A stretch of 58,146 bases of DNA. It comes from a bacterium (GTDB lineage: Bacteria; JAUVQV01; DATDCY01). Where the stretch lies: contig DATDCY010000279.1 in the NCBI GenBank assembly GCA_036524115.1, positions 1-58,146 on the forward strand, read 5' to 3'. The translations under genes were made by a program, and so were the position numbers. Of this stretch, positions 2,019 to 39,309 are shown piece after piece. Positions within the stretch are counted from its first letter, which is position 1, and each line of letters starts with the position of its first letter. The notes beneath the pieces were generated by a model that did not search any database, was not told the DNA's origin, and saw only the letters and a program-made list of their open reading frames with translations.

Positions 2019-2074
2019 GGCTCACCCCCCCCCGTTATGCGCGGGGCCGATGGTATGGCCGGCCCCTCCCCGTG

Positions 2075-3247: not shown

Positions 3248-3455
3248 CGGCACCCTCCCCCTTGCGGCTCGCGTCTGATCGGCGAGGGACTTGTAGCATC
3301 CCGCCGCGGCTTCTTCAACCCCGCGAGCCGTTGACACCCCTGATCCTGTGCGGTTCAATGAGCTTCCCGTCGCCCTTCGAGCGGGCGCGGAGCGGCCGAC
3401 GACGAGGACGACGCGGGGCGCCCGGCGCACCCGCACCGACAAGGAGAGGCAAGCG

Positions 3456-11227: not shown

Positions 11228-12484
11228 ATGCCCGTGGGTCATCTCGGCCGCCACGGCCACGCCAGGCTCGCGCAACGGCTCGGGCAGTATGTGCCGGGCG
11301 CGTTCCCGTCCGAGACCCTGTGCGCGATTCTCCGGGTCCTCGTGACGGAGGAGGAGGCGCGCCTCCTGGCCCTGCTGCCGCTGCGGGACGTCTCCGCGGA
11401 GCGCGCCGCGGCGATCTGGGACACGGACCCCGGGGCGGCCCGGGCGGTGCTCGAGTCGGCCGCCGGCAAGGGCGTCGTCTACGCCTCCGGCCCGCCCGGC
11501 GCGCGGCGCTACCTGCTGGCGGCGCCGGTGCTCGGCTTCGTCGAGTTCTCGCTGATGCGGACCGACGGGAAGTTCGACGCCGGCCTGCTCTCGCGCCTCT
11601 ACCACCAGTACTGCGACGTCGAGGAGGACTTCATCCGCCTGCAGGGCTCGGCGCACCCGGCGCTCGCCCGGGTCTTCGCCCAGGAGGCGATGCTCGGCGA
11701 GGAGGTCGCCTCGGAGGTCCTCAGCTGGGACCGCGTGAGCGCCGGCATCGACGCCGCCTCGCGCGTCACCGTCGGCCTCTGCTTCTGCAGGACCAAGCGG
11801 CGCCACCTGGGGGAGGGCTGCGGCGCGCCCGACGAGGTCTGCCTGACCTTCAACGACGTGGCCGCCTATCTCGCCGACTACGGCATCGCGCGCGAGATCT
11901 CGCGCGACGAGGCGCACCGCATCGCCCGCGACTGCATGGAACGCGGGCTCGTGCAGGTCGGCGACAACAAGAAGGGGGCCCTGGCGGTCATCTGCAACTG
12001 CTGCGGCTGCTGCTGCGAGGTCCTGCGCGGGCACCGGCGCTTCGGCGGCACGGGCCTGGTGAGCCCGTCGGCGTTCGTGGCCGCGGTGGAGGCGGGCGCG
12101 TGCACCGGCTGCGGCACCTGCGCCGCCCGCTGCCCGGCAGGGGCCGTCAGGCTCACGGACGGGCGCGCCGTCGTGGACGCGGGGGTCTGCCTCGGCTGCG
12201 GCGTGTGCGCCCGCTTCTGCCCGGGCGGCGCCAGCCGGATGCGGCCGCGCGCCGAGCGGCCCTTCGTGCCCGAGGACCTGGTCGAGAAGATGGTCATGGC
12301 CGGCATCGACGCGGGCAAGCTCGGCAACTTCCTCTTCGACGACCAGCGCAGCGCCGCCCACGCGCTCGCGCGCCGGACGGTCAACGGGCTGCTGCGGCTG
12401 CCGGGGCTCAGGGGCCTGCTGCTGCGCCCCGCGATCGTCGCGCGGATCGTGCACGTGGCCCGTGAGAGCGCCCGCGCGTCCTGA
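11228..12484 (+). CDS. 4Fe-4S dicluster domain protein with CNCCGCCC motif
   Basis: CTGCGTCAARCP and CLGCGVCARFCP ferredoxin motifs, plus ICNCCGCCCEV and LCFCRTKRRH. In-frame GTG 11234 is an alternative start. Confidence 0.7.
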   Translation: MPVGHLGRHGHARLAQRLGQYVPGAFPSETLCAILRVLVTEEEARLLALLPLRDVSAERAAAIWDTDPGAARAVLESAAGKGVVYASGPPGARRYLLAAPVLGFVEFSLMRTDGKFDAGLLSRLYHQYCDVEEDFIRLQGSAHPALARVFAQEAMLGEEVASEVLSWDRVSAGIDAASRVTVGLCFCRTKRRHLGEGCGAPDEVCLTFNDVAAYLADYGIAREISRDEAHRIARDCMERGLVQVGDNKKGALAVICNCCGCCCEVLRGHRRFGGTGLVSPSAFVAAVEAGACTGCGTCAARCPAGAVRLTDGRAVVDAGVCLGCGVCARFCPGGASRMRPRAERPFVPEDLVEKMVMAGIDAGKLGNFLFDDQRSAAHALARRTVNGLLRLPGLRGLLLRPAIVARIVHVARESARAS

Positions 12485-13016
12485 GCGCCGCGCCGGCCTC
12501 GAGGGCCAGCAGCGCCCGCTTGCGCGCGAGGCCGCCGGCGTAGCCGGTGAGCGTGCCGTCCGCGCCGACCACCCGGTGGCAGGGCACGACGATCGCGAGC
12601 GGGTTGCGGGCGCAGGCGGAGCCGACCGCGCGCACCGCCCGTGGCGAGCCCGCGGCGTGCGCGATCTCGCCGTAGGTCGCCGTCGCGCCGTAGGGGATCC
12701 GCCGGAGCGCCTCCCAGACCCGGCGCTGGAAGGGCGTCCCCGCCGGAGCGAGCGGGAGATCAAAGGCGGTCCGTGTTCCCGCGAAGTACGCGGCCAGCTC
12801 GCGCCGGGCCCGCGCGAGCGCCGCCCCTCCCGGCGCGGCGGCGGACGCGCCCGCGCCCCCGGCGCCCCGGCGCGCAAAGTGCAGCGCGACGAGGGCACCC
12901 CCCTCGAACGCGAGAACGAGCGGGCCGACGGGGCTGTCGATGGTTGCCGCACACGCCGAGCCGCCCCCGGGGCGGGAGGACGCGTTCCGGGCGACAAGCC
13001 GGCTGGAGCGTGCCAT
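12408..13016 (-). CDS. ogt: methylated-DNA-protein-cysteine methyltransferase
   Basis: FQRRVWEALRRIPYGATATYGEIA and the active-site IVVPCHRVV. ATG is at 13016. The 3' end overlaps the convergent Fe-S gene by 77 nt. Confidence 0.85.
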   Translation of the reverse strand: MARSSRLVARNASSRPGGGSACAATIDSPVGPLVLAFEGGALVALHFARRGAGGAGASAAAPGGAALARARRELAAYFAGTRTAFDLPLAPAGTPFQRRVWEALRRIPYGATATYGEIAHAAGSPRAVRAVGSACARNPLAIVVPCHRVVGADGTLTGYAGGLARKRALLALEAGAALRTRGRSHGPRARSARRSRGAAAGP

Positions 13017-13034
13017 GCATCGACATACTGTCTC

Positions 13035-13063
13035 TTGCCGCTGAAGTTGCACTCCCCGATAAT
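13035..13063 (+). promoter_or_regulatory. possible sigma70 promoter TTGCCG-N17-GATAAT
   Basis: Hexamers at 13035-13040 and 13058-13063, about 48 nt upstream of ATG 13111. Confidence 0.35.
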
Positions 13064-13110
13064 CTCGTCATGATCGTCACTCTCCGTTTCGGGCCCATCG
13101 TCGTCAATCC

Positions 13111-14238
13111 ATGAGACTCGCTCGGCGCGCGCTGCCCGCTCTGCTCACCGGCGTCGGTCTTTGCTGCTCCGCCCGCGCGGCCTCGCCGCCCGCTCCGGTC
13201 CTGCAGACCGGCCAGACCAGGTGCTACGGCGAGACGGGCGCGAGCGACGCCGTCTGCGCCGGGACGGGCCAGGACGGGGAGATCAGGAGCGGTGCGCGCT
13301 GGCCCGAGCCGCGCTTCGCGGCGGAAGGCGATCAGATGATCGTCGACCGGCTGACGGGACTGGTCTGGACCAGGGACGCCAACGCAGCCGGCGGGCCGAG
13401 GACCTGGCAGGAGGCGCTTGCGTACGTCAGGACTCTCGACGCCGGAAACCACCTGGGTCACGGCGATTGGCGCCTGCCCAACGTCAACGAACTCGGGAGC
13501 CTCTTCAACGCGCAGGCCAATCTGGCCGAGTGGCTGCAGGCCCAGGGATTTCGCAATCTCCAGGTGGACTACTACTGGACGTCCACCACCTACGCCAGCT
13601 ACCCGCGATACGCCTGGAGCGTCGACATCTACGGCGGCATCGTGGCCGGCCATGACAAGGCGGACCTCTACTTCGTCTGGCCGGTGCGCCGGAGGGAGCC
13701 GGGTGCCGTTTCCTTGCCGCAGACCGGCCAGAACACCTGCCATGATCAATCCGGAACCGTGAGCGCCTGCGCCGGAACCGGTCAGGACGGCGAATCGCAG
13801 GCCGGCGTCCCCTGGCCGAGCCCGCGCTTTGTCGCGAATGCCGACGGGACCGTGTCCGACAGGTTGACGGGGCTGGTGTGGAGCAGGGAAGGCCAGGCGC
13901 CCGGCCCCGAAGTCTGCAGGCCCGGCACGCGCATGACCCTGCGAGCTGCGCTACAATTCGTGACGTGTCTCAACGCCAACAGCTATCTGGGCTGGAAGGA
14001 CTGGCGCCTGCCGAACCGCAACGAACTCGCGACCCTGGTGGACCGCGGCCAGGCCGACAGCTCCGCGTGGCTGAACACGTCGGGATTCTCGAGGGTGCAG
14101 TCCGCCAGCTACTGGTCCTCGAGCGCCTTCGTCTACAACCCCGGCAACTGGTGGAGCGTGAATCTTCACGACGGCGCCGTGACGACCTACGCCAGGGGAC
14201 ACGGCATCAACGTCTGGCCGGTCCGCGGCGGGGAGTGA
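13111..14238 (+). CDS. secreted DUF1566 (Lcl C-terminal domain) protein, two-domain
   Basis: Signal peptide, then two repeats of TGQ..CY...C.GTGQDGE...WP.PRF...DRLTGLVW...DWRLPN.NEL..L...YWSS. Confidence 0.75.
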   Translation: MRLARRALPALLTGVGLCCSARAASPPAPVLQTGQTRCYGETGASDAVCAGTGQDGEIRSGARWPEPRFAAEGDQMIVDRLTGLVWTRDANAAGGPRTWQEALAYVRTLDAGNHLGHGDWRLPNVNELGSLFNAQANLAEWLQAQGFRNLQVDYYWTSTTYASYPRYAWSVDIYGGIVAGHDKADLYFVWPVRRREPGAVSLPQTGQNTCHDQSGTVSACAGTGQDGESQAGVPWPSPRFVANADGTVSDRLTGLVWSREGQAPGPEVCRPGTRMTLRAALQFVTCLNANSYLGWKDWRLPNRNELATLVDRGQADSSAWLNTSGFSRVQSASYWSSSAFVYNPGNWWSVNLHDGAVTTYARGHGINVWPVRGGE

Positions 14239-14243
14239 CGACC

Positions 14244-14951
14244 ATGCCGGCACGGTTCGCCGCCATCTTCTTCGTGCTGCTGGCCTTGCCCCTGCCCGCC
14301 GGCGCCGGGACGATCCAGCTTCCGCGGACCGGGCAGAGCACCTGCTACGACGCGACCGGCGTCATCATCGACTGCGCCAACACCGGCCAGGACGGCGACA
14401 CGCAGACCGGGGTGCCCTGGCCTTCCCCCCGCTTCACGGACAACGGGGACGGCACCGTCACCGACAACCTGACCGGGCTGATCTGGCTCAGGGACGCCAA
14501 CTGCACCGACACCGTCGGGGGGATTCCGCGGGCCGGCGGGCTGCTGAACTGGCCCTCGGCGCTCACGTGGTGCAACAGCCTGGCGCACGGCAGATGCGGC
14601 CTCGCCGACAACTCCGTGGCCGGCGACTGGCGCCTCCCCAACATCAACGAGCTGAAGAGCCTCGTCGACCACTCGCGACACGACCCGGACCTGCCCGGCG
14701 GTCATCCGTTCCGCAATGTTCAACCCCTGTGGTACTGGTCGTCCACGTCGAACCCGGTCTACACCGCCGGCGCGTTCAACGTCGGGATGAGCCGCGGCAG
14801 CATCCACGTCACCGACAAGCTGCCCAGCCGGTTCGGCTCCAGCAATGTCTCGGACAAGGAGGAAAGCGCCCTCGGGGTCTGGCCGGTCCGCGGCGGGCAG
14901 CCGGCCCGCGAGCGGAGGAATCCCTCCCCTACCGTGCCTCCGGCGCCATGA
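14244..14951 (+). CDS. secreted DUF1566 (Lcl C-terminal domain) protein, single-domain paralog
   Basis: ATG 14244 lies inside ORF 13878..14951. Signal peptide MPARFAAIFFVLLALPLPAGAG, then TGQSTCYD...NTGQDGD...DWRLPNINELKSLV...YWSSTS. Confidence 0.75.
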   Translation: MPARFAAIFFVLLALPLPAGAGTIQLPRTGQSTCYDATGVIIDCANTGQDGDTQTGVPWPSPRFTDNGDGTVTDNLTGLIWLRDANCTDTVGGIPRAGGLLNWPSALTWCNSLAHGRCGLADNSVAGDWRLPNINELKSLVDHSRHDPDLPGGHPFRNVQPLWYWSSTSNPVYTAGAFNVGMSRGSIHVTDKLPSRFGSSNVSDKEESALGVWPVRGGQPARERRNPSPTVPPAP

Positions 14952-16053
14952 TCACGGCGTCGAAGAACGGCGGGAGAGGCTTCTCCTCGACGAGCCGGTA
15001 GCCGGCGACGGCGAGTTCCCTGAGCATCACGTACTTGCTGGTGTGGCGGTTGGCGTCGCCAGCCGGGAAGTAGGCGCCCCTCCCGCCTTCCGCAAGGCAG
15101 TCGCCGAACCGCGCGCTGAAGAAGAGACGGTTCAGCTTGATCACCGCGCGCAGCTTCCTCTGGTCGCCCCGATCGAAGGTGTCGTCGAGCGCGCCGTCCT
15201 CTTCGAGCGTCATGAGCAGCCAGTTGGCGAGATCGCGCTCCGCCGGCGAGAACATGCCCCGGGTGAAATACGAGTCCCGGTAGAAGTGCCGGTAGAACTG
15301 CGGGTCCAGGAGCATCCGATTGAAGTCCCGGACCAGGGCGTCCTTGAGCGCCGCGTCCTTCCCGGGACTCCTGAGAAGCTGCCGCGTGGCGTCCGACAGT
15401 CGCGAGACGAAGGGGCTCTCGGGCGGCTCCTGGGCGAGACGTCCCGCCAACTCTTCGGGGCGGGCGAGATCGTCTTCGGAAAACAGCGGCGTCTGGTTGT
15501 AGAGGATGACGACCAGCCGGCCGCCCGGCTTGAGGAAGGCGCGCAGCTTCGTGAAGTAGTCGACACGGGCGTCGAGGGCGTGATAGACGTTCGAGAGGAA
15601 CACCAGGTCATACCGGTGCCTGGCGTAGAACTCGTCCAGGCCGTTGGCGGAAACCACGGCCGCGGAGAGGTTGCCGAGGCCGCGCCGCTTCGCCTCCGCC
15701 GTAATGTGCTCGACGAAGTCCGCGCGGATGTCGGTCGCGTAGACCGCGCCGCTTCCCTGGAGCCTCTCGGCAAACAGGAAGGAGGCGTAGCCCGGGCCGG
15801 CGCCAATGTCGAGGATCGACATCCCCGTCGCGATGCCCAGGGTGTCGACGAACGCCTCGAGATTGATCTTCTCCTGCCGGGAATTCTGCCGCCGGACCGC
15901 CACCTCGAGGGGAGGATGCGAAGAGGGCGGACCCGCCTGCAGGAGCCCCTGCTGCTGGGCGGGCGGCACCGGGACTTCGGCCGCAAGGGCCCGGCCGAGC
16001 ATGGCCGCGCCGGTCACCGCGAGCGCAGCGCAGACCAGCCTCACGCCCTTCAT
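14929..16053 (-). CDS. class I SAM-dependent methyltransferase with N-terminal signal peptide and long C-terminal extension (paralog 1)
   Basis: MKGVRLVCAALAVTGAAMLGRALAAE, then motif I ILDIGAGPGYASF and GGRLVVI. ATG 16053 follows GGAGGTGAC, 1 nt after the upstream stop. Confidence 0.8.
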   Translation of the reverse strand: MKGVRLVCAALAVTGAAMLGRALAAEVPVPPAQQQGLLQAGPPSSHPPLEVAVRRQNSRQEKINLEAFVDTLGIATGMSILDIGAGPGYASFLFAERLQGSGAVYATDIRADFVEHITAEAKRRGLGNLSAAVVSANGLDEFYARHRYDLVFLSNVYHALDARVDYFTKLRAFLKPGGRLVVILYNQTPLFSEDDLARPEELAGRLAQEPPESPFVSRLSDATRQLLRSPGKDAALKDALVRDFNRMLLDPQFYRHFYRDSYFTRGMFSPAERDLANWLLMTLEEDGALDDTFDRGDQRKLRAVIKLNRLFFSARFGDCLAEGGRGAYFPAGDANRHTSKYVMLRELAVAGYRLVEEKPLPPFFDAVIMAPEAR

Positions 16054-16054
16054 G

Positions 16055-17479
16055 TCACCTCCGGTAGGGACTCAATTCCCCGTCGGCATAGGCCGACCGC
16101 GGGAAGGGGATGTAGTCGGGGTGATAGAACTGGATGACGACCTCGTCCGCGAAGAACCGCCCCTTCTCGGTGAGCGTCACCAGCCCCTCCCGCTCCTCGA
16201 GCAGGCCGTACCGCGCCAGCCTCTCGATCCTGTCGCCGAACTCTCTCTCCAGCGGCGTGCCCGTCACGGCTTCGTAGCGCCTGCGGTCGACGCCGGCGTG
16301 CTTCAACGAGACGCAGACCGCCCACCGGCGCACGTCGTCCGCGGTCTTGATCTTGCCGCGGGCCACGGGCAGCCTCCCCCGGTCGACGGCGGCGTGATAA
16401 TCGTCGAGGCCCCTGCCGGTGTTGATGAAGAAGCGGTCCTGGAGGTTGTTCCAGGCCGAGATGCCGAATCCCAGGACGTTGGCAAGGCGGTCCGTGTGGT
16501 CCTGCAGGTACTCCGAGTTGTGCTCCGGCCCGCGGGCGAACACCCGCCTCGAGGTCTCCCGATAGCCGTTCCGCTCCGAGATCAGCAGTCCCAGCTCCTT
16601 CATGAGGTAGATCTCCTCCAGCGGGGGGAAGATCTCGGGGGAGGTGTCGTACATCTTCGTGATCGAGCCCGGCCGTGCTCCGTGGGGGACGATGCGCAGG
16701 CGGTACAGCTGATAGGCGTCGACGCCGAGGGCGGCGGCGGTCATCAGCGTCTCCACCCAGTTCTTCAGGGTCGACCCCGGGTAGCCGTAGATCAGATCGA
16801 TGCTGACGCTTTCGAAGCCGGCGTCGCGGATCGCCTGGAGCGCGTCCCGTGCATCCCGGGCGGTGTGCAGCCTCCCCGTGCCCTTCAGGATGCCGTCGTC
16901 GAAGGACTGGACGCCGAGGCTGATCCGGTTCACGCCGCCAGCCTTCATCGCCCGCAGCTTGGCCCTTCCCTCCGGGCCGAGGATGGTCGTCGGCTCCGTC
17001 TCGCAGGTGATCTGACGGCAGTTCCCGAGGTCGAAGTCCTCGGCGATCCCCCGCAGGAACCTCTCCGTCTGGGCCGGGGAGAGCATCGAGGGCGTGCCGC
17101 CCCCGACGAGGATGGACGTCGGGGAGATGACCGCCCCCCCGAGGAGGCCCTGGTAGATTCGCACCTCCCGCCGCAGGGCGTCGAGGTAGCGGTCGACCTC
17201 CTCGCTCGAATTGCCGACGCAGACCACCCAGTGGCAGTAGGCGCACCTTCTCGGGCAGAAGGGGAGATGGAAGTACAGCGAATTCCGGCCTCCCGCAGCG
17301 AACGAGAAGCCGCGGAAGATGTCCTCCTGGGTCGCCTCGGGATACTTGGTGATCGGCGGGTAATAGATGGCGGGGAAGTAGCCGCCGTCCAGCGGCAGGA
17401 ACCCGGCCTTGCGCAGCTCCTCCGTGGCAAAGGATCGAATCCTCGCGCTCGCCAGTGCCAACATCTCAGCGTGCTGCAT
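16055..17479 (-). CDS. HemN/HemW-like radical SAM protein (coproporphyrinogen III oxidase family)
   Basis: CPRRCAYCHW (CxxxCxxC), GGGTPS, SLGVQSFDD and DLIYGYPG, plus a C-terminal HemN_C-like region. Start is ATG 17479 or 17464. Confidence 0.85.
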   Translation of the reverse strand: MQHAEMLALASARIRSFATEELRKAGFLPLDGGYFPAIYYPPITKYPEATQEDIFRGFSFAAGGRNSLYFHLPFCPRRCAYCHWVVCVGNSSEEVDRYLDALRREVRIYQGLLGGAVISPTSILVGGGTPSMLSPAQTERFLRGIAEDFDLGNCRQITCETEPTTILGPEGRAKLRAMKAGGVNRISLGVQSFDDGILKGTGRLHTARDARDALQAIRDAGFESVSIDLIYGYPGSTLKNWVETLMTAAALGVDAYQLYRLRIVPHGARPGSITKMYDTSPEIFPPLEEIYLMKELGLLISERNGYRETSRRVFARGPEHNSEYLQDHTDRLANVLGFGISAWNNLQDRFFINTGRGLDDYHAAVDRGRLPVARGKIKTADDVRRWAVCVSLKHAGVDRRRYEAVTGTPLEREFGDRIERLARYGLLEEREGLVTLTEKGRFFADEVVIQFYHPDYIPFPRSAYADGELSPYRR

Positions 17480-18575
17480 CGCTCTTGTCCGGCCTGGGGG
17501 CCGCCCGGGTGAAGACAAGGACATCCTCCAGGGGGACGAGATCGGCGTACTCCCGCTGCAGGGCATACCCCGCGCGTGCAAACGCCTCCCTGCCCGCCTG
17601 CGACAGCCCCGACGTGAACAAGGCGTCGCTTCTCAGGAACTTCCGGAATCGCTGGACGATCAGGAGCTTGTTGATCATCCTGGCCTTTTCACCGGAAACC
17701 CAGGTTGCGTTCGGTGTCCCCCGCACCACGCTCTGCCGGTTGTTGGAGAGGGCGAGCCATTGAACGAACTCCCGCTCTCCGGGGCTGAATGCCAGATCCT
17801 TCCTGAGGGCCTCGCCGTCGAGGAAGGCCATGCCGAAGTTGGCGTCCGCCAGCGTGGCGTTGAAATCCCCGGCAACCGCAGCGGCCAGACCCGCAGCAGC
17901 GCCCGATCCCGCCGACGCCCTCATCACCTCCGGGGTGGATTCCCGAAAGACCCGGGAGAACGGGGAGTCGAGGCGTTCCCGCAGGATCTCCCTGGCAAGC
18001 GCTTCGTGGTCGTCGGTGAAATCGGCCGCGGAGAAGTCGGGGACGCTCTTCTGGAGGATGAGGACGAGCCGCCCGCCCGGCGCCAACGACCCCAGGAGGT
18101 ATCTCAGGAACTCGGCTTCCTTCCCGTAGTCCATGAGGACGTGGAACATGGCGATCAGCTCGTAGGTGTCCGATCGATAGAAGGGGTCGAGGCCGTCGCG
18201 TTTCACCAACGCGGGGACGATGTTCGGAAGCCCCCGTGCCGCTGCCTGCTCCTGCACGTACCGCACGCAGCCCTCGTTGACATCGGTGGCGTACACTCTT
18301 CCCTGCCCGTGGAGCCGATCGGCGAAGGCGTATGCGAACTGGCCGGTGCCGGTGCCGAGATCCAGGATGGTCATCCCCGGCCTGATCGCCAGCACGTCCC
18401 AGAGCGCCGCCGTGTTCAGCATCTCGAAGCGCCGGCTGTCGCGCTCGATCCTCCCGGGGACGAGGACGCCGCTCTGGGTGCCCGAATGCGCAGCCGCCGC
18501 GGGGTTCCCGGCCGCGACGAGCAGCGCCGGCACCAGGCACAGGAGCCGGAAGGCGGCCGTTCCGTGGTTCTTCAT
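17466..18575 (-). CDS. class I SAM-dependent methyltransferase with N-terminal signal peptide and long C-terminal extension (paralog 2)
   Basis: ATG 18575 overlaps the upstream stop (ATGA). MKNHGTAAFRLLCLVPALLVAAGNPAAAAHSG, then ILDLGTGTGQFAY and GGRLVLI. Alignable with 14929..16053 over its whole length. Confidence 0.8.
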   Translation of the reverse strand: MKNHGTAAFRLLCLVPALLVAAGNPAAAAHSGTQSGVLVPGRIERDSRRFEMLNTAALWDVLAIRPGMTILDLGTGTGQFAYAFADRLHGQGRVYATDVNEGCVRYVQEQAAARGLPNIVPALVKRDGLDPFYRSDTYELIAMFHVLMDYGKEAEFLRYLLGSLAPGGRLVLILQKSVPDFSAADFTDDHEALAREILRERLDSPFSRVFRESTPEVMRASAGSGAAAGLAAAVAGDFNATLADANFGMAFLDGEALRKDLAFSPGEREFVQWLALSNNRQSVVRGTPNATWVSGEKARMINKLLIVQRFRKFLRSDALFTSGLSQAGREAFARAGYALQREYADLVPLEDVLVFTRAAPRPDKSDAAR

Positions 18576-19828
18576 CGCTCGTCCGTCCTCTTGCCGGCGA
18601 CGCGGCTCATGACGCGGTAGGCGCAGACATCGCCGCAGACGCTGCACCCCGCTCCTTTCTCGCCGGCCTGCCTGAGCACGGTCCTCACCCGCTCGTCCCG
18701 GGCGAACGGCAGCTGGTCCTTCCAGGAGCCGGCCTCACGCGCGACGGAAAGAGCGTGATCCATCTCCCGGTCCTTTCCCCGCGCCAGATCGGCGCCGTGG
18801 CAGGCCAGCGCCGCGACGATGCAGCCCTCCCTGGTCTGCTCCTCGTCCGGCATGCCGAGGTGCTCCGCCGGCGTCACGGCGAAGATTTCGTCGGCCCCGG
18901 CGAGGAGGGCGATGATCTGCCCCATGGCGGCGCTGGCGTGATCGAACCCCAGCGAGATGTCGGTGACCTGGGGGCCGAAGCAGGTGATGGGGACGCGCAG
19001 CAGCTCCTTCTGATAGCGGATGAAGGGGCCGATCCTGTCGGCAGGCAGGTGCCCCCCGGAGCCGGCCATGATCTGCACGCCGGCCGCCCTGGCGCGGCCG
19101 ACATACTCGGCCATCGTCTTCAGCTCCTCGTACTGCGGGCCGTCGAGCGCGTCGTGAATGCAGCCCGAGCGGAAGGAGCCGACGACGGACAGGGTCGTGC
19201 CGTGCTCCTTTGCCAGCGCGAGGATCTCGTCGAAATGGCGGCAGTAGGGGTTCTCCCGGTCGTTGTGCGCGATCCAGGCGCTCATGATCGAGCCGGACTT
19301 GCTGCAGCAGGGCATCACGCGCCCGCTGTCGTTCAGCCCCGCCACGATCGACCGGGAAATGCCCAGCGGCAGCAGCAGCACCTCGATGCCCTGCTCGATG
19401 TCCCTCCTGGCCGCCTCGATGAATTCGCCTTCGGCGAGATCGACGAAGGGCCTCTGGCGGAGGCAGGCGTCGGCCATGACACCGATGGGATGGCACAACG
19501 CAAGGGGGGCGGCCACGGCGTCCCGGAGGCGCCGGTGCATCTCCCGCACGTCGCCGCCGGCGCTGCCGTCGTGGACGACGGCCGCCCCCTGCTCGACGGC
19601 GATCTTCGCCTTCCTGACGACCGTCTCCATGTCCGGCTCCGCCGTGGACGTGCCGACGATGCAGGCGAATTTCGCCCTGAGGCCCTTCCCGATGCCGACC
19701 GGCCGCACCCCCGCCCGCCCGGACGTGATGATCACCGCCTCGCCGGCGGCGTGGGCGGCGGCGAGCGCCTCGACGGGCACCTGCTCCCGGTGGGCCACCT
19801 CGGCTACTTCCTTCGGCGAAACAGGCAT
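18572..19828 (-). CDS. ThiC-family (phosphomethylpyrimidine synthase/BzaF-like) radical SAM-dependent enzyme, divergent
   Basis: GSGGHLP (compare GPGHVP), FGPQVTDISLGFDHASAAMG, TPAEHLGMP and the C-terminal Cys cluster CSVCGDVC. Confidence 0.8.
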   Translation of the reverse strand: MPVSPKEVAEVAHREQVPVEALAAAHAAGEAVIITSGRAGVRPVGIGKGLRAKFACIVGTSTAEPDMETVVRKAKIAVEQGAAVVHDGSAGGDVREMHRRLRDAVAAPLALCHPIGVMADACLRQRPFVDLAEGEFIEAARRDIEQGIEVLLLPLGISRSIVAGLNDSGRVMPCCSKSGSIMSAWIAHNDRENPYCRHFDEILALAKEHGTTLSVVGSFRSGCIHDALDGPQYEELKTMAEYVGRARAAGVQIMAGSGGHLPADRIGPFIRYQKELLRVPITCFGPQVTDISLGFDHASAAMGQIIALLAGADEIFAVTPAEHLGMPDEEQTREGCIVAALACHGADLARGKDREMDHALSVAREAGSWKDQLPFARDERVRTVLRQAGEKGAGCSVCGDVCAYRVMSRVAGKRTDER

Positions 19829-19832
19829 ATCC

Positions 19833-21038
19833 CTAGGGCGATGTGGTGAACGAGCGGCCCTCGACCCCTTTCCAGTAACGCTCGACCGCGGCCGCCAGGT
19901 CCTCCTCCCGCCCGATCAGACACTCGGGGACCGCCTCGCGCCCGGAGAACCCCCCGGCGCCCCCGGTGAAGAAGGACAGGACCGTTTCCCCTTCCCGGAT
20001 CGTACCCTCGTCGATCGCCTGGAGCGTGCCGGCAAGGGCCATGATCCCCGCCTTCTCCATGATCTCCTCCCGGCCGTTCACCTCCCTCGTCTTCACGGGG
20101 ATGTCGTTGTTCGCGAGCTCTCGCAGCAGCAGCGGCAGGCGCCTTTCGTACTCCTCCCGCCGCAGGGCGCGCAATTCGCCGCCGTAGCGCTCCAGGTGCC
20201 GGCAAAGCAGGGGATAGCTCCCCTCGGGGTTGGTGTTGTACAGCGCCTGATCCAGCAGGTCGTCCGAGACGCACTCGGCGTCCTCGGCCTCGATCCGCCG
20301 GTGCCCCTTCCGCCAGGCCCGCGCCATCGGCGAGCGCGCTTCCTGCTGAATCCCGAGGAACTTCGGCACGCCCTCGACGCCCATGGCGCCTTCGCGCACC
20401 AGCGCTCCGACCCGGTCGTAGAAGCCGATGGGGCCGAACCCCGCGCAGATCGTCTGGCTCACCCAGTCGAAGCGCAGCCGCCGCTCCACCATGGTCTCGA
20501 AGACGAACAGCGCCCGCAGGCCCGTGGCGGCGAAGCGCCACTCCAGCGCCGGAACGTGCGGGATCCCGCTCATCTCCGCGAAGAGCAGGGCGGCCCTCTT
20601 GACGTCCCTCTCCGGCCTGTCGACCGAGATGACGTGCGCGCCGGGGAACGCGAAGGAGGCGTCGTCGAGCTTCCAGGAAGTGGCGTCCGGGTGGAAGAAG
20701 AAGGTCTCGACGCCCGCGCTGCGGCCGTACAGCGAAAGGGCCGCGCCGAGATTGGCCCCCGAGGAGAAGGCCGCCGCCCGGTAACCCCTCTTGCGGCACA
20801 GGGCCATGACGAAACAGGCTTCCAGCGACTTGAAGGTGCCGGACGCCATCAGCGTCGATTCGTCGTCGAGATAGACCCGGACGCCCTTGTATTCGAGGAA
20901 CTCCAGGATCCGGGCCCCTTCCCGGAGGCTGACCCGACGATAATCGTCCTCGCTCAATTCATCGAACCCGATTGCCCGATGGTAGCGAAGGATCAGGCTC
21001 TCTCCCGGGGCGAACGCCGGGTCGACGTGCCTATCCAC
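19833..21038 (-). CDS. PLP-dependent enzyme of the tryptophan-synthase-beta/threonine-synthase-like fold (start uncertain)
   Basis: ASGTFKSLEA is a candidate PLP-lysine motif, with SSGANLGAALS and a Gly-rich FFTGGAGG near the C-terminus. GTG 21038 overlaps the upstream stop by 8 nt. The track's start at 21128 would overlap by 98 nt. Confidence 0.6.
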   Translation of the reverse strand: MDRHVDPAFAPGESLILRYHRAIGFDELSEDDYRRVSLREGARILEFLEYKGVRVYLDDESTLMASGTFKSLEACFVMALCRKRGYRAAAFSSGANLGAALSLYGRSAGVETFFFHPDATSWKLDDASFAFPGAHVISVDRPERDVKRAALLFAEMSGIPHVPALEWRFAATGLRALFVFETMVERRLRFDWVSQTICAGFGPIGFYDRVGALVREGAMGVEGVPKFLGIQQEARSPMARAWRKGHRRIEAEDAECVSDDLLDQALYNTNPEGSYPLLCRHLERYGGELRALRREEYERRLPLLLRELANNDIPVKTREVNGREEIMEKAGIMALAGTLQAIDEGTIREGETVLSFFTGGAGGFSGREAVPECLIGREEDLAAAVERYWKGVEGRSFTTSP

Positions 21039-22200
21039 GGCTCGGACTCTTCGGCCGGGAGCGCACGGTCTTCCGAATGAGCGCGAGGATCTCGGCTTCG
21101 GAGACGCCGCGCTCCCGGCTTGCGGCACGCAGGGCGCGGAGGATCGCGGCGCTCTCGCGCCTCCCCGGGGCGAGCCCGAGCTTCCGGCAGAACGGCTCGA
21201 GCGCGTCGGTGTAATCCACCGGGAGCGTGAAGGCGAACTTCCTGGCCGCGCCGATCGCCTCCGGCTCGAAGGGCTCGAAACCGCGGCGGTTGCCGGACGC
21301 CGCGTTGCGGATGTGCTGGACCGGCGAGTGGAGAAACGTGAATTCCCCGACGACGGCCTTCACGCGGCACTTGTCGATCCCGGAGAGTTTCTCGACGAGC
21401 CCCGAGAGGGCGCTCACCTTCTCCAGCCGGAGCCCGGTCCGCACGCCGTGGAGCACCTCCAGCGCGAGCACCACCTCTTCCAGAGCGGCGTTGCCCCCGC
21501 GGTCCCCCAGGCCGTTCGTCACGACGTCCGCGCCGGCGGCGCCGGCGGCGAGGCCGGCGAGCGTGTTCGCCGTCGCGAGGCCGAAATCGTTGTGACAATG
21601 CACGACGATCGGCAGGGAGCATTTCTTCTTCGCGCCGGAGACCATGGCCGTCATCAGCTCCGGTGTGGCGACGCCGGTCGTGTCGTAGAGGATGACCCGA
21701 TCCGCGCCGGCTCCCTGGCCCTCGCGCATCAGCCGGACGAGAAATGCGAGATCCGTCCTCGTGGCGTCGACAAAGCCCAGCCCCACCCGCACCCGGCGTC
21801 TCTTCGCGTGGGCCAATCCGTCCCGGAGCAGCCCGGGCAGGCCGCCCTTGCTGATCTTGTAGTAGTCCTTGAGATTCAGGAGGGTGTCGGACGTGGGAAC
21901 CAGCAGCTCGACCCGATCGAGGCTCGATGCCGCGGCGACGTCGATATCCTCCCTGCACCTCGCGCGGTGGGCGAGGACGAGCGCCGATGTCCGGATTCGC
22001 AGGCCGCGGGACTTGATCGCCGCCGCCAGGGGCAGGCAGCCCCGGATGCCGTAGGGCATGCCGATCTCGATCTCCGGGACCCGCATCTCCTCGAGCATCA
22101 GAACGATCTTCAGCTTCTGCGCGAGGGACAGCTCGACGCCGGGCAGCTCCAGCCCCTCGCGCAGGGTGGAATCTCTGATGAGCACGGGCTTCACGATCAC
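21031..22200 (-). CDS. HMGL-like DRE-TIM metallolyase (homocitrate/isopropylmalate/citramalate synthase family)
   Basis: IRDSTLREG, HCHNDFGLATANTLAGLAAGA and LGDRGGNAALEEV. GTG 22200 follows AGGAGA. Confidence 0.85.
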   Translation of the reverse strand: MIVKPVLIRDSTLREGLELPGVELSLAQKLKIVLMLEEMRVPEIEIGMPYGIRGCLPLAAAIKSRGLRIRTSALVLAHRARCREDIDVAAASSLDRVELLVPTSDTLLNLKDYYKISKGGLPGLLRDGLAHAKRRRVRVGLGFVDATRTDLAFLVRLMREGQGAGADRVILYDTTGVATPELMTAMVSGAKKKCSLPIVVHCHNDFGLATANTLAGLAAGAAGADVVTNGLGDRGGNAALEEVVLALEVLHGVRTGLRLEKVSALSGLVEKLSGIDKCRVKAVVGEFTFLHSPVQHIRNAASGNRRGFEPFEPEAIGAARKFAFTLPVDYTDALEPFCRKLGLAPGRRESAAILRALRAASRERGVSEAEILALIRKTVRSRPKSPSRG

Positions 22201-22216
22201 TCGGTCTCCTGTTGAC

Positions 22217-23101
22217 TTACCTGCTGACGAGCAGGAGGGCGACGCCGCCGACCGCCACGGCCGTCGCCAGGCCGGCCTTCAGGGAAATTCGTTCCCCGAG
22301 CAGGATAGCTGCGATGGGCAGGATGAACAAGGGCGCCGTGGAGCCGAGCGCGCCGGCGAGAGAAGCGTCGAGATGCTTCAGCGACAGCAGGGAGAGCCAG
22401 AAGCCGCCAAAGACCACGATGAAGACGATGAGGGAGACCTTTCGCAGGAGCCTCGGGTCTCCGAAGGGAGCCACCCAGCCCCGCAGCTGGCGACTGAGGA
22501 ATCCCCAGCAGAGCAGTCCGCCGACGCCCCAGAGCATCCGGATCAGGGTGGCCTGCACCGAGGGGACGGCGCGGACGCCGATCTTGGCGCAGATGATCCC
22601 GGCGGTCATGAAGAGGACGGAGAGGAGCCGGAGCACGACCCCCCGCGACGTGCCGCCTGCCAGCCCCACGCGCGCCTGGCGCGCCTGCACGACCCAGGCG
22701 ACGCCGCCCACGGTGAGGCAGATGCCGGCCCACGCGGCGATGGATGGTCGCTCGCCCAGGAAGATGACGGCGGAAGCGGCCACGCAGACAGGGACGAGGG
22801 TTCCCATGAGCGAGGAGAGACTCGGGCCCAGGTGCATCAGGGAGAGGAAGAAAAACGTATCCCCGAGGGTGATCCCGAGCAGACCGCTGATCCCGAGGTA
22901 GAGAAAGTCGTGCAGGCTCATCGGCTCCAGGCGGATCACGAGAAAGGCCGCGGCGAGAAAGAGGCTGCCGATGACGCCCTTGCCCAGGTTCATGCTGAAC
23001 GGGGAGATCTCCTCCCCGATCTTGCGCCACAACACGGTGCCGAGGGCCCAGGAGGCGGAGGATGCCAACGCCACGAGACCGAAGAAGAGCTGGCTGTCCA
23101 C
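22217..23101 (-). CDS. EamA/DMT-family transporter
   Basis: About ten hydrophobic segments in two EamA-like halves. N-terminus ...LASSASWALGTVLWRKIG. GTG start. Confidence 0.85.
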   Translation of the reverse strand: MDSQLFFGLVALASSASWALGTVLWRKIGEEISPFSMNLGKGVIGSLFLAAAFLVIRLEPMSLHDFLYLGISGLLGITLGDTFFFLSLMHLGPSLSSLMGTLVPVCVAASAVIFLGERPSIAAWAGICLTVGGVAWVVQARQARVGLAGGTSRGVVLRLLSVLFMTAGIICAKIGVRAVPSVQATLIRMLWGVGGLLCWGFLSRQLRGWVAPFGDPRLLRKVSLIVFIVVFGGFWLSLLSLKHLDASLAGALGSTAPLFILPIAAILLGERISLKAGLATAVAVGGVALLLVSR

Positions 23102-23128
23102 AACCTCCCCGAACTGCCGCGCCTCTGG

Positions 23129-25519
23129 CTAAAAGAAGTTGTAGTCGGTGACGGCCACGGCCAGGTTCCGGGCCTTTGCCAGCTCGGCTTCGGTCGGGAC
23201 AGTCGACCGCACCGTGATCTCGAACGTGACCGTCCCGGCGGTGCGCCCCGCCGTGTAGTGCGTCGCGCTCTCGCCGTTCTTGCCGGTCAACCCCTTGTCG
23301 TCCCGCAACTCTCCGCCGCCGCTGGCGATCGCGTACTCGACCTCGGTGTTGTCGTTCGGGTTGTCGTTGATGTCGGTCACCAGCACCGACAGCTCGGCGC
23401 GGCTCCGGCCATCGGCCGGCAGCTTTTCCGGATTGAGCGTGATGGCGATCTTCGCCGGGGCATCGCTGCGCAGCTCGATCGACACCGTGCCGCTGATCTC
23501 CGCGGTCCTGTCGGTCGCCGTGATCAGCACGATGCCGATCTTCTTCCCGGCGGTGTAGACCGCGCGCGCCTCGCCTTTCCTGTCGGTGATGTCCTTCACC
23601 GTCCGGATCGAGCCGGCTCCGGAGGCAACGCCGAAGTCGACCGTGTGGCCCTCTACCGGCGCGCCGCCGAGGGTCACCCGCGCCGTGATCCGCGCCTGGC
23701 TCCTGCCATCCGCCGTCAGCCATTCGTCGCTGGAGGTCACCGCGATCTCGTACCCCGCCGCCATCGCAGCGGTTTCCTGCGCCGGCTCGAGCTCGAGCTG
23801 GGCGGCCGCCGTGATGTAGGTCTTCACCCAGGCCGAGCCGGTGCTGTTGCTCACCATGTCGCGCGCCACGATGATCGCCGTCTTCGCAGCGAAGCCGGCG
23901 ACATAGGTCAGTTCCACCCGGCCGAACAGGTCGGTCTCGAGCCAGCGGTCCTGCGTGATCCTGCCGCCGACCTGGTCGGCGAAGTCCCCGCCGCCGACCA
24001 CGCCGGTGTACGTCGAGGTCGTGGCCAGCAGGAATTTCACCTTGTGGCCGGGAACGGCCTTGCCATTGGCATCCGTCACCGTCACGGCAACCTTGGACCT
24101 GGAGACCTCATCCGCCTTCAGCTCGTTCGGCTCGGCGGCCACCGCGACGGTGAGGCCAGGGTCGATCGCGAGCACCGTCGTGTCGGTGAGCGTGGTTTCG
24201 GCGCCCAGACGCTCGAGACGGCCGACGACCACGGCCCGGGGGTAGCGGTCCTGCCACCCGGCTCGATAGGAGCCGCCATAGACCCCGGGCTCCGTCTCCG
24301 TCAGCGGCTGCCGTGTGATCGGCGCGAGAACCGTCCGGGTCGTCCCGTCGCGCATGAGCGCCACCGCAGCCAGGTAGTAGGGCGTGTCGACCTGCAAATA
24401 CTCGAAGGTGTAGGACTGCACGCCGGCTTCCAGCTGCTCGACGGGCTCCACCCCCGGGGCGGCCGGGTCGAAGGGCACCGTGCTCGCGTAGACGCGGTAG
24501 CTCTCGACGTCGCGCAGATTGACCTCGCCCGGCTCGTAGAAGGCCTTTTCCTCGAGATAGACCCCCCAGCCGCGCCAGTCGAGGGTGATCCTGCCGCCGA
24601 GGTCGGGGTAGTGCACGAGGTCGAAGGTTGCCGTCGCGCCGGGGTTCCCTTCCAGGGTCACGTGAAGCGTGTCGCCGGCCACGAGCTTGCCGGAGAAGCC
24701 GGAGACCTTGGCCGCGTCGTGGCCCACCGACGAGATGGCGGGGGGCTGGGACGCCGGGACGTCGTCCACGGAGGCGGTGAAGCTCTCGACGAGGGCGCTG
24801 CGGAGATAGGGACGCCTCTTCCCTGGGGGGAGAGCGCGGGCGCCGTCGGGGTCGGGGACCGGGGGGCCGTAGCTCCCGAGCTGGACCGAGACCACGCCGG
24901 AGAGGAAGGCGCCGAGGGGCCTGGAATCGAAGGCCTTGGGCTGGCCCAGCCGCTCGCGGTCGCTGTTGACCCGCTCTCGCTCCGCCGGGCTCAGGGACCT
25001 CCCGGGCTCGTCGTCCCCGGCCTTCCTGGTCTGCTCCTTGCCGTCGACCGAGACGGCGTACTTCCTGGCCCCATCGTCCCAGGTCAGGTCCACGTGGATC
25101 GATTCGCCGCGGGCCACCGGCCGGTCCAGCTCGACGACCGGTCCCCAGAGGCCGATCCCGTGATGTCGATACTCATCGCCTTTTCCCGGGCCGCGAAACG
25201 TGAGCGTGGGGTTGCGGCCCGCAGCCGGCGCCCAGCTCACCTGCAGGCGCAGCACCTGGACGCCGGAACGGTCCAGCAGGGAGAAGACGGTCTCCCCCGC
25301 CGCCGCCGGGGTGTCGCCCGTGCGCTGCAGGTCGAAGGAGATGGCTCCCCGGCTCGCCCCCGCGAAGGAGACGGGCAGCGCGAGGGAGTCCGCGACCTCC
25401 GACTGGTTCCAGCCCTTCCCCCCGAACGTCCGCCCCGCGACCTCACGGGCCGGGACGGCGCTCGCGCCCGCGAGCAGCCAGATGCCGAGGACCCCGAGAG
25501 AACACCATTTCTTTCCCAT
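23129..25519 (-). CDS. secreted protein with three C-terminal Big_1 (invasin/intimin-type Ig-like) domains
   Basis: ATG 25519 lies inside ORF 23129..26656. Signal peptide MGKKWCSLGVLGIWLLAGASAVPA. Repeats of the form L.ADG.S.a.vtv.VtD.nG.pv.g..V.F (LKADEVSRSKVAVTVTDANGKAVPGHKVKF, LTADGRSQARITARVTLGGAPVEGHTVDF, LPADGRSRAELSVLVTDINDNPNDNTEVEY). Confidence 0.75.
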   Translation of the reverse strand: MGKKWCSLGVLGIWLLAGASAVPAREVAGRTFGGKGWNQSEVADSLALPVSFAGASRGAISFDLQRTGDTPAAAGETVFSLLDRSGVQVLRLQVSWAPAAGRNPTLTFRGPGKGDEYRHHGIGLWGPVVELDRPVARGESIHVDLTWDDGARKYAVSVDGKEQTRKAGDDEPGRSLSPAERERVNSDRERLGQPKAFDSRPLGAFLSGVVSVQLGSYGPPVPDPDGARALPPGKRRPYLRSALVESFTASVDDVPASQPPAISSVGHDAAKVSGFSGKLVAGDTLHVTLEGNPGATATFDLVHYPDLGGRITLDWRGWGVYLEEKAFYEPGEVNLRDVESYRVYASTVPFDPAAPGVEPVEQLEAGVQSYTFEYLQVDTPYYLAAVALMRDGTTRTVLAPITRQPLTETEPGVYGGSYRAGWQDRYPRAVVVGRLERLGAETTLTDTTVLAIDPGLTVAVAAEPNELKADEVSRSKVAVTVTDANGKAVPGHKVKFLLATTSTYTGVVGGGDFADQVGGRITQDRWLETDLFGRVELTYVAGFAAKTAIIVARDMVSNSTGSAWVKTYITAAAQLELEPAQETAAMAAGYEIAVTSSDEWLTADGRSQARITARVTLGGAPVEGHTVDFGVASGAGSIRTVKDITDRKGEARAVYTAGKKIGIVLITATDRTAEISGTVSIELRSDAPAKIAITLNPEKLPADGRSRAELSVLVTDINDNPNDNTEVEYAIASGGGELRDDKGLTGKNGESATHYTAGRTAGTVTFEITVRSTVPTEAELAKARNLAVAVTDYNFF

Positions 25520-25533
25520 GGCTGATGCTCCCC

Positions 25534-34955: not shown

Positions 34956-35015
34956 CTTCCGTCTCCTCCTGCCGCCCGCGGCGGCCGCGTCGTTGCGGTG
35001 TCGCTGTCGGAGGGA

Positions 35016-35057
35016 AACGTAGCACCCGTCCCGGAACGGGTCTTTGACTTGGGTCAA
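35016..35057 (-). promoter_or_regulatory. class II Crp/Fnr-type promoter: TTGAC-N4-GTCAA box plus extended -10 TGCTACGTT
   Basis: Perfect palindrome TTGACTTGGGTCAA at 35044-35057. The reverse complement of 35016-35024 is TGCTACGTT. The box centre lies 29.5 nt from the -10 upstream edge, which places it near -41.5. About 55 nt of 5' UTR precedes ATG 34955. Confidence 0.6.
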
Positions 35058-35235
35058 ACATAGGTCCTGTCCGCGAATCGCGCACCGCACCCGCCGCAAC
35101 GCGGTCCGGACGTTCCCAGGCCGGGCCACGACCCGAGGACGCCTGTTCCGTTCGGTCCGCGTGCCCGCGGGGGCGGGGCGGTGCCGTGCGGCCGCTTCGT
35201 TACGCGCTCGACCTGGGCCTGTCCGGTCCTCCGCT

Positions 35236-35280
35236 CGAAACGCATAACTCGCCCCTGCGGGGCTCAAACAATGCGTTTCG
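35236..35280 (-). repeat. structured hairpin element, copy A (10-bp outer stem, conserved core)
   Basis: CGAAACGCAT...ATGCGTTTCG form a perfect outer stem. Read on the minus strand, the core is TGTTTGA-GCCCC-GCA-GGGGC-GAGTT. Confidence 0.6.
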
Positions 35281-36369: not shown

Positions 36370-36378
36370 GACGGCGCG

Positions 36379-36387
36379 ACTATAGCA
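36379..36387 (-). promoter_or_regulatory. extended -10 (TGCTATAGT) for the Crp/Fnr gene, implying a near-leaderless mRNA
   Basis: The reverse complement of 36379-36387 is TGCTATAGT. Its last T lies 9 nt upstream of ATG 36369. Confidence 0.45.
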
Positions 36388-36415
36388 CGCGGGCCGGCGG
36401 GACGAGCGGCCGCGG

Positions 36416-39247: not shown

Positions 39248-39309
39248 CCGCCTTCGGCCCCGGTGACCGGCGAGGGCGCGACCCCGCGGGCGAGGGCCTC
39301 GGGCAGACC

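Follow-up and report, generated by a model that had tools for sequence, protein, structure and literature searches.

The radical S-adenosylmethionine (SAM) enzymes ThiC and BzaF carry out rearrangements that are among the most complex radical reactions known, and only two outcomes have been described for them, the pyrimidine of thiamine and hydroxybenzimidazole, both from one substrate, aminoimidazole ribotide (AIR). In the bza operon (bzaF or bzaAB, cobT, bzaC, bzaD, bzaE), the gene for a ThiC-family enzyme comes before those for a SAM methyltransferase and radical SAM enzymes. A preliminary description of a 58,146-nt stretch of bacterial DNA (contig DATDCY010000279.1; hereafter the window, about 70% GC) proposed that a seven-gene cluster at 14929-23101 follows this logic in part, with a ThiC paralog that rearranges a ribotide, and that it forms an undescribed pathway with an exporter. 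In the analysis reported here, the ThiC-like protein is, judged by its sequence, a rare third clade of the ThiC family, and the gene set recurs in order in unrelated phyla. We favour, with moderate confidence, the reading that the seven genes provide the cytoplasmic and export functions of a larger operon, which would build, methylate and export a small anionic metabolite derived from an amino or hydroxy acid, to be handled afterwards by co-encoded secreted proteins.

The seven genes lie within an apparent operon of nine minus-strand genes (14929-32652), with intergenic gaps of -14 to +27 nt and a high third-position GC content along the run (14.9-32.7 kb). Its first gene encodes a giant multihaem cytochrome, followed by genes for a Big_1 protein, an EamA transporter, an HMGL-like synthase, a pyridoxal phosphate (PLP) enzyme of the Pfam family PALP, the ThiC-like protein, a methyltransferase (MT2), a HemN-like radical SAM protein and a further methyltransferase (MT1). 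Gene starts in the run were picked by comparison with homologs (MQHAEML for the HemN-like protein), and the GTG start of the PLP-enzyme gene agrees with the called 401-aa protein. Pfam confirmed all seven domain assignments of the preliminary description. Its boundaries are too narrow: the unit is larger, and they enclose no more than its cytoplasmic and transport part. It had also missed the signal peptides of the methyltransferases, the reach of the unit to the Big_1 protein, the multihaem cytochrome and neighbouring Lcl_C proteins, and the PLP enzyme and HMGL-like synthase as the deepest core.

The curated ortholog cut-offs of NCBIfam served as the test for housekeeping orthologs among the seven proteins, all of which scored far under the cut-off of their nearest model. 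The ThiC-like protein reached 320 (cut-off 410) with NF009895, 291 (460) with TIGR00190 and 275 (700) with the BzaB model TIGR04386; the HemN-like protein reached 171 (325) with TIGR00538, and the PLP enzyme 54 (303) with threonine synthase, with a further match at 46 (325). The HMGL-like synthase scored 253 bits with LEU1_arch, 252 with isopropylmalate synthase and 226 with NifV (cut-off 463), all under the cut-offs. Therefore none of the seven is the ordinary ortholog of its family, as had been claimed.

The ThiC-like protein and its active site

The ThiC-like gene (18572-19828, minus strand; PF01964 ThiC_Rad_SAM, E 2.6e-97) is the only ThiC-family locus in the window, and no thi genes were found in the flanks of the cassette within the window. 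The protein shares with ThiC, BzaF and BzaA-BzaB the ThiC_Rad_SAM fold, the length of short-form ThiC, the C-terminal cluster loop with three Cys, the second-metal His pair, the Glu at the SAM ribose and the Arg at the SAM carboxylate. Among 5.8 billion clusters, about 50 relatives (90%-identity clusters) were 45-100% identical to it, none of them specifically annotated, and a gap surrounds this clade, with identities of at least 45% inside and at most 39% to any other ThiC or BzaB. An exhaustive HMMER search placed 1542 50%-identity clusters in the ThiC superfamily, only 3-4 of them full-length members of the clade. Scanning 185,579 species genomes with ThiC-clade patterns found it in two, a Planctomycetales metagenome-assembled genome (MAG) and a Candidatus Rokubacteria MAG, whose protein is 83% identical to that of the window and has the same neighbours; the window therefore probably belongs to the Rokubacteria as well. 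An altered Cys motif, previously put forward as a mark of this protein, was rejected because CX2CX3C is common to all short-form ThiC and BzaB relatives; CX2CX4C is found only in the long-form ThiC of plants and Caulobacter.

Structures of Arabidopsis ThiC define the contacts of the substrate: R386, Y286, S342 and H322 for the phosphate, N228 and E422 for the ribose hydroxyls, D383 for the imidazole N3, and Y449, which stacks on the amino group. SAM is contacted by R386, E489, L259, M572, R343 and G230, and the second metal is held by H426 and H490 (PMC4389238). The ThiC mutants D383A, E413Q (Caulobacter numbering; E422 in Arabidopsis) and C474S consume the substrate and do not make hydroxymethylpyrimidine phosphate (HMP-P) (PMC11117688). 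We aligned 23 clade members with canonical ThiC, BzaB and a Methanoregula-type group in a residue table. In the clade, N228, H322, D383, E422, Y449 and C483 of Arabidopsis ThiC are replaced by I57, P154, G or A217, G256, I or T282 and F316, respectively, the exceptions being Asn in the D383 column of two members and Leu in the catalytic-Cys column of one. Five of the replaced residues are AIR contacts, at its ribose, its imidazole and, in part, its phosphate; the sixth is the catalytic Cys (C474 in Caulobacter). Canonical ThiC, BzaB and the Methanoregula-type group retain all six positions, allowing for D383N and Y449F; the last group has both of these changes, D383N being the one reported for BzaF. 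All 23 clade members share R386 (Arg220 of the ThiC-like protein), E489, G230, P494, both His (H260 and H323) and the three Cys without exception. Most of them also retain S342; the position beside the adenine, L259 in Arabidopsis ThiC, is occupied by Gly. As far as these columns can predict, the protein should be competent for radical SAM chemistry, in a pocket that is roomier and less polar.

These replacements bear on the bza-like proposal, in which the ThiC paralog would rearrange AIR into a heteroaromatic base; methylation of the base, its attachment to an amino-acid skeleton by the PLP enzyme and export would follow. The intact fold, Cys triad, metal His pair and SAM contacts agree with it, and the retained Arg386 and mostly retained Ser342 leave a phosphate anchor possible. 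Since the AIR contacts and the catalytic Cys are replaced, however, formation of the thiamine pyrimidine or hydroxybenzimidazole from AIR by this protein appears very unlikely: the six substitutions are mostly to small or hydrophobic residues, and in ThiC a single mutation at any of three among the six positions is enough to abolish product formation. The gene order, a ThiC-like gene followed by methyltransferases and a candidate radical SAM methylase, recalls bza operons, and related clusters hold one or two B12 radical SAM genes; yet here the radical SAM enzyme is of class C and not class B, PLP, HMGL-like and EamA genes are added, the methyltransferases carry secretion signals, and the active site does not suit AIR. 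The near-ThiC active site (D383N), the bza/cobT context and the cobalamin riboswitch that mark BzaF or BzaAB are all missing, the BzaB score is far under its cut-off, and no thiamine or cobamide genes are neighbours. As the preliminary description stated, Pfam found neither cobT nor a B12-binding radical SAM gene in the window. Neither the window nor any of five related loci gave an Rfam match at the gathering score, which excludes thiamine pyrophosphate (TPP) and cobalamin riboswitches at that threshold. Fold-type II PLP enzymes can attach heterocycles to Ser, and a nitroreductase fold in the ThiC slot of sister clusters recalls the BzaF/BluB pair; that nitroreductase is not BluB, though, and the closest sister type has a flavin-reductase-like protein in that place. 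We regard the bza-like proposal as quite unlikely.

The PLP enzyme and synthase pair in sister clusters

The fold-type II PLP enzyme (19833-21038, minus strand; PALP, E 2.7e-14) is of the threonine-synthase/cysteate-synthase type, and its Schiff-base Lys and SSGAN loop are invariant. With its AlphaFold2 (AF2) model (predicted local distance difference test, pLDDT, 91.5), Foldseek placed threonine synthases on top (TM up to 0.78) and the cysteate synthase CapA2 at rank 5; identity to solved threonine synthases is 17-20%. These families act on O-phospho-amino acids. The adjoining gene (21031-22200, minus strand; HMGL-like, E 3.6e-50) encodes a DRE-TIM synthase resembling homocitrate, isopropylmalate and citramalate synthases, with the homocitrate synthase 6ktq as its best solved relative (aligned over 367 residues). 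It retains the E/HxH metal ligands, LREG and HCHND aligning to 6ktq, and has DSTLREGLE where 6ktq has DSTLREGEQ, so that the GEQ part of the RE/DGEQ motif is missing. The preliminary description correctly noted that it has no LeuA regulatory domain, as in NifV-size enzymes, but the "unique tail" reported there corresponds in alignments to the C-terminal subdomain that NifV and archaeal homocitrate synthase normally have. In their folds, catalytic Lys, PLP loop and metal ligands the two proteins thus resemble threonine and cysteate synthases (CapA2 included) and homocitrate and isopropylmalate synthases; they differ in being very divergent, with REGLE in the synthase, and in always forming an adjacent pair.

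This pair, and not the ThiC-like gene, is the deepest conserved core of the system. In 86 non-redundant loci the HMGL-like gene adjoins the PLP-enzyme gene wherever the contig allows. The PLP enzyme had 260 relatives in one metagenome scan, a scan of species-genome contigs with PLP-enzyme patterns found nothing, and literature searches returned no description of an adjacent pair of threonine-synthase-like and isopropylmalate-synthase-like genes. The slot by the PLP gene holds a nitroreductase fold in 50 loci, a ThiC-like gene in 12 and Flavin_Reduct in seven; in 16 loci the contig breaks off there, and beside one distant homolog, from an actinobacterium, the slot holds none of these. In the nitroreductase and flavin-reductase types, one or two B12-binding radical SAM genes and genes for short cytoplasmic methyltransferases usually replace the HemN-like gene and those of the MTlong family, to which MT1 and MT2 belong. 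Often these clusters lie among glycosyltransferase, flippase, CapK-like (adenylating) and Asn-synthase-like genes, and the CapK-like, Asn-synthase-like and glycosyltransferase neighbours fit a carboxylic-acid product. The amino-acid-derived product suggested earlier gains support in a broader form, as one probably derived from an amino or hydroxy acid.

The swap of ThiC for a nitroreductase was considered as a parallel to BzaF and BluB and rejected. The sister nitroreductases score 49-66 bits with the BluB model (cut-off 150), and in a PDB search BluB (2isj) came at rank 29 (E 3.9e-6), after generic nitroreductases, albonoursin synthase and iodotyrosine deiodinase. The nitroreductase is thus generic, and Flavin_Reduct fills the slot in the closest sister type. 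Separately, extra radical SAM genes lie near the core in four loci of the flavin-reductase and nitroreductase types (L057, 11692-12816; L073, 8705-9829; L095; L096), with a SPASM domain (Pfam) in L095 and L096. Sister clusters of these types also encode a 111-aa protein with no Pfam match beside a 626-aa amine-oxidase-like protein of the flavin adenine dinucleotide (FAD) type.

In the 12 non-redundant ThiC-type loci, which come from unrelated phyla, the gene set recurs in order and the proteins are 45-65% identical to those of the window. The order HMGL-PALP-ThiC is kept in every locus that is long enough; HemN-like and EamA genes are added in 10 of the 12, and one to three MTlong genes in 11. 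Some also encode a secreted bicupin with a signal peptide, either free or fused to MTlong. This arrangement is far beyond chance. It bears out the earlier claim of an undescribed pathway with an exporter, and our literature searches found no description of the cluster, of the ThiC clade or of the combination of HemN-like and ThiC-like genes. Every protein here comes from a family with housekeeping members, but the idea that ordinary thiC, hemN/hemW, leuA/nifV and thrC genes lie together by coincidence is hardly credible, given scores far under all ortholog cut-offs, a ThiC active site incompatible with the known mechanism, the rarity of the clade, synteny kept across phyla and the missing TPP riboswitch. 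A distant variant occurs in L007 (7695-16396; ThiC-like protein 45% identical), where HMGL-PALP-ThiC is followed by genes for a peptidase U32-family protein, a 514-aa protein with no Pfam match and a TauA/NMT1-type ATP-binding cassette (ABC) importer, with no HemN, methyltransferase or EamA gene. The U32 family includes O2-independent hydroxylases.

A hybrid type links the two kinds of cluster. Loci L011 (Desulfobulbaceae), L093, L094 (Riflebacteria), L065 and L081 combine HemN-EamA-nitroreductase-PALP-HMGL with MTlong; Lcl_C and multihaem cytochrome genes are further present in L011 and L093, the latter with a Big_1 gene as well. Their MTlong (56-61%), Lcl_C (70-71%), HemN-like (49-51%) and EamA (49-52%) proteins are about as similar to those of the window as the proteins of other ThiC-type loci are, whereas PALP (35-39%) and HMGL (34-35%) are far more distant. 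One extracytoplasmic module therefore appears to serve cores of two kinds, an argument that the compounds they deliver are similar.

Methylation, export and secreted neighbours

The HemN-like protein (16055-17479, minus strand; Radical_SAM and HemN_C) has CPRRCAYCHW, that is CX3CX2C, with the fourth Cys of HemN missing, and GGGTPS is present. It therefore has the architecture of the class C methyltransferases NosN/NocN and ChuW and not the CX3CX2CXC motif and ortholog-level score of a coproporphyrinogen dehydrogenase. Its best NCBIfam model, under the cut-off like all others, is the uncharacterised STM4012 family; the HemW and ChuW models gave 154 and 168 bits. The protein is a candidate class C radical SAM methyltransferase that would methylate carbon, as the preliminary description suggested. 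This assignment gains indirect support because B12 radical SAM enzymes occupy the HemN slot in sister clusters, but similarity to the methyltransferase NocN (9p2u, E 2.9e-29) only equals that to HemN (1olt, about E 3e-29), and the thiopeptide, haem-uptake or polyketide context of the known enzymes is absent. HemN-like and B12 radical SAM enzymes often act on peptides, and a ribosomally synthesized and post-translationally modified peptide (RiPP) was considered as the product; it is unlikely, as a precursor gene would not fit into intergenic gaps of -14 to +27 nt.

The presumed exporter (22217-23101, minus strand) consists of two EamA repeats (E 2.7e-35) of the drug/metabolite transporter (DMT) type, and its nearest NCBIfam model, scored under the cut-off, is a carboxylate/amino acid/amine transporter family. 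The EamA gene adjoins the HemN-like gene in seven loci: L006, L008, L009, L011, L081, L093 (two pairs) and L094. The second pair of L093 (14696-21071) follows another radical SAM gene and lies directly upstream of Reg_prop, multihaem cytochrome, Big_1 and MTlong genes; HemN-EamA can therefore travel with envelope proteins in the absence of the PLP/HMGL core.

MT1 (14929-16053, minus strand; Pfam Methyltransf_31/12/25) and its divergent paralog MT2 (17466-18575, minus strand; Pfam methyltransferase domains) belong to MTlong, a family that comprises more than 110 clusters and has its SAM motifs intact. Motif I, ILDIGAGPGY, and ATD are conserved, as expected of the class I SAM methyltransferase fold, and the cytoplasmic location usual for that class is not what the sequences predict. 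A hydrophobic signal-like segment, which in most cases closes with ..QA|KPP, stands at the N-terminus of 22 of 22 aligned members, and Sec-type signal peptides were predicted by eye; MT2 has the signal-like MKNHGTAAFRLLCLVPALLVAAGNPAAAAH. The AF2 model of MT1 (pLDDT 81) shows a signal helix (2-22), a Rossmann core (79-185) and a helical insert (199-324) of about 125 residues for which Foldseek found no structural match; the remaining Foldseek matches of MT1 were generic small-molecule SAM methyltransferases only. MT2 is 46% identical to the second MTlong of L093. The top NCBIfam match of MT1, arsenite methyltransferase (36 bits), was rejected because the MTlong alignment has no invariant or near-invariant Cys. 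In two metagenome proteins, P0257 and P0259, MTlong is fused at its C-terminus to Lcl_C, which by the Rosetta-stone argument would link two secreted families whose genes are separate and adjacent in the window. Literature searches found no description of secreted bacterial SAM methyltransferases.

Both Lcl_C (DUF1566) genes of the window converge on the MT1 end of the operon. One (13111-14238, plus strand; E 8.9e-58 over two stretches) encodes a secreted two-domain protein with the signal-like N-terminus MRLARRALPALLTGVGLCCSARAA, and the other (14244-14951, plus strand; E 2.4e-24) a secreted single-domain protein, 67-71% identical to Lcl_C neighbours in L001, L011 and L093, whose gene overlaps the MT1 stop by 23 nt at its 3' end. 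Lcl_C genes also flank the cassette in L001, L002, L005, L011, L065 and L093. At the other end, the stop of the Big_1 gene (23129-25519, minus strand) lies 27 nt upstream of the EamA start; its product is a secreted 796-aa protein with the signal-like segment MGKKWCSLGVLGIWLLAGASAVPA and three C-terminal Big_1/invasin Ig-like domains (Pfam), and homologs are similarly placed in L005 and L093. The first gene of the operon (25534-32652, minus strand) encodes a secreted c-type cytochrome of 2372 aa with a signal peptide, fn3-like parts, 29 CXXCH motifs and Cytochrome_C7/c3 matches, 63% identical over 1414 aa to a neighbour of the cassette in the Rokubacteria MAG (L005). An octahaem cytochrome gene (32821-34032, minus strand; 403 aa, signal peptide, 8 CXXCH; Pfam Multi-haem_cyto, Cytochrome_C554) lies 168 nt further upstream and may share the transcription unit. 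The cassettes of L001, L002, L011 and L093 likewise have large multihaem cytochromes beside them, and literature searches found no description of a system that combines DUF1566 with cytochromes.

This linkage suggests a different reading, in which the whole system serves the multihaem cytochromes: the HemN-like protein, EamA and the secreted methyltransferases would see to the supply, modification or repair of haem, of a redox or haem-derived cofactor, or of the cytochrome and surface proteins themselves, and the PLP, HMGL-like and ThiC-like enzymes would make a small molecule such as a ligand or an electron shuttle for extracellular electron transfer (EET). The tight operon with the 29-haem cytochrome and Big_1, the octahaem gene upstream, the giant cytochromes beside the cassette in the Rokubacteria locus and the four others, and the second HemN-EamA pair of L093 directly upstream of cytochrome, Big_1 and MTlong genes all fit, as do a weak Pfam match of MT1 to protein isoaspartyl methyltransferase and the presence of a haem chaperone (HemW) and a haem-methylating enzyme (ChuW) among the members of the HemN family. 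However, the cassettes of L003, L006, L008 and L009 have no cytochrome genes in the flanks seen, the commoner nitroreductase/B12 type sits in glycosyltransferase loci devoid of cytochromes, and we know of no haem pathway with a ThiC-like, threonine-synthase-like or homocitrate-synthase-like enzyme. A dedicated cytochrome role is therefore unlikely in our judgement.

In another reading the product serves not as a free metabolite but as a unit for decorating a polysaccharide or protein of the surface, with the lectin-like Lcl_C and Big_1 as surface partners. The Lcl C-terminal domain comes from a glycosaminoglycan-binding adhesin. Nitroreductase cores lie amid glycosyltransferases, a Polysacc_synt flippase, CapK-like and Asn-synthase-like genes in L010, L094, L095 and L096, which this reading would explain, as it would the secreted sulfatase and phosphodiesterase of L005 and the FGE-sulfatase genes near the cassette in L001 and L011. 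The window and the other ThiC-type loci, in contrast, have no glycosyltransferase or ligase genes by the cassette and yet have EamA, and the operon encodes no transferase able to attach the product; decoration of the surface is improbable on this balance. In L005, the sulfatase and a type I phosphodiesterase/NPP are both secreted and lie in a 4.3-kb insert (11250-15580) between the ThiC-like and methyltransferase genes. The neighbours in L005, L001 and L011 give hints that the exported compound may be a phosphate or sulfate ester.

Other features of the window lie outside the unit. A 4Fe-4S ferredoxin-domain protein with the His-rich run HGGHHHGHHGHHEGHHAHRGHGHH (34140-35267, minus strand) is encoded next to a Crp/Fnr-type regulator (35674-36417, minus strand). 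At 1473-3538 (minus strand), a pyruvoyl-dependent arginine decarboxylase gene beside a deoxyhypusine-synthase-like gene forms a polyamine (homospermidine-type) pair. The region 37700-44300 (plus strand) has very long, mutually overlapping open reading frames of 75-77% GC with tetratricopeptide (TPR) repeats and a weak PMT_2 match; one of them, of 984 aa, has no Pfam match.

Proposed pathway and its implications

In the reading we favour, an exported metabolite derived from an amino or hydroxy acid, the PLP enzyme would catalyse an elimination or replacement on an O-phospho-amino acid. The HMGL-like synthase would add an acetyl unit from acetyl-CoA to a 2-oxo acid in a Claisen-type condensation, and together these steps would build the acid scaffold. 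The ThiC-like enzyme would then employ a 5'-deoxyadenosyl radical to carry out, independently of oxygen, a redox or rearrangement step. Its substrate would be larger and less polar and would be held at the retained Arg220 through a phosphate or carboxylate; in sister clusters, the equivalent step would fall to flavoproteins. The catalytic domain of glutamate mutase is homologous to that of ThiC (PMC4389238), which makes a skeletal rearrangement conceivable. The HemN-like protein would C-methylate the compound and EamA would export it, after which the secreted MTlong proteins, with Lcl_C, would complete the compound or make use of it, either in the periplasm or at the cell surface, close to the multihaem cytochromes. 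The maturation of pyoverdine-type compounds offers a purely functional analogy, with cytoplasmic enzymes, an exporter and signal-bearing tailoring proteins (here a methyltransferase fold, a bicupin and FGE-like proteins) in one locus; the present locus differs in having no nonribosomal peptide synthetase (NRPS) and in periplasmic proteins of a SAM-dependent fold, for which no extracytoplasmic cofactor supply is known.

Several points weigh against this pathway. Its enzymatic steps are deduced from family membership at scores under the cut-offs, and the Y286 column of the ThiC alignment is not reliably aligned. No precedent for SAM-dependent methylation outside the bacterial cytoplasm was found in the literature and no SAM supply is known there, so the secreted proteins of methyltransferase fold may bind rather than catalyse, or their hydrophobic N-termini may be membrane anchors. 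The HemN-like protein, as near to HemN as to NocN and encoded close to cytochrome genes, may have a haem-related role, and not all B12 radical SAM enzymes are methylases, the sister enzyme having BchE and HpnJ as its best NCBIfam matches. Finally, the link to Lcl_C and cytochromes holds in the window, L005, L001/L002, L011 and L093, but not in L003, L006, L008 and L009.

A more far-reaching version, doubtful but worth stating, places a third type of ThiC reaction, one that does not start from AIR, in an envelope system. EamA would move either the core product or SAM, and the secreted methyltransferases and Lcl_C proteins would act outside beside the giant cytochromes, perhaps on an EET ligand or electron shuttle. 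DMT-family transporters of Rickettsia and Chlamydia carry SAM, and by analogy EamA might carry it outward. If true, this would be the first SAM-dependent methylation in a bacterial periplasm.

A ThiC clade that keeps the radical machinery around a different pocket offers a new reaction to discover, and a natural experiment on how the scaffold steers a radical. Clusters built around the PLP enzyme and synthase pair make up a large family, so far unrecognised, that occurs in anaerobic sediments and in soils. The repeated link of signal-bearing SAM methyltransferases, some of them fused to Lcl_C, with giant cytochromes raises the question of methyl transfer outside the cytoplasm, a question that extends to its role in the extracellular respiration of uncultivated groups such as Rokubacteria and Desulfobulbaceae.

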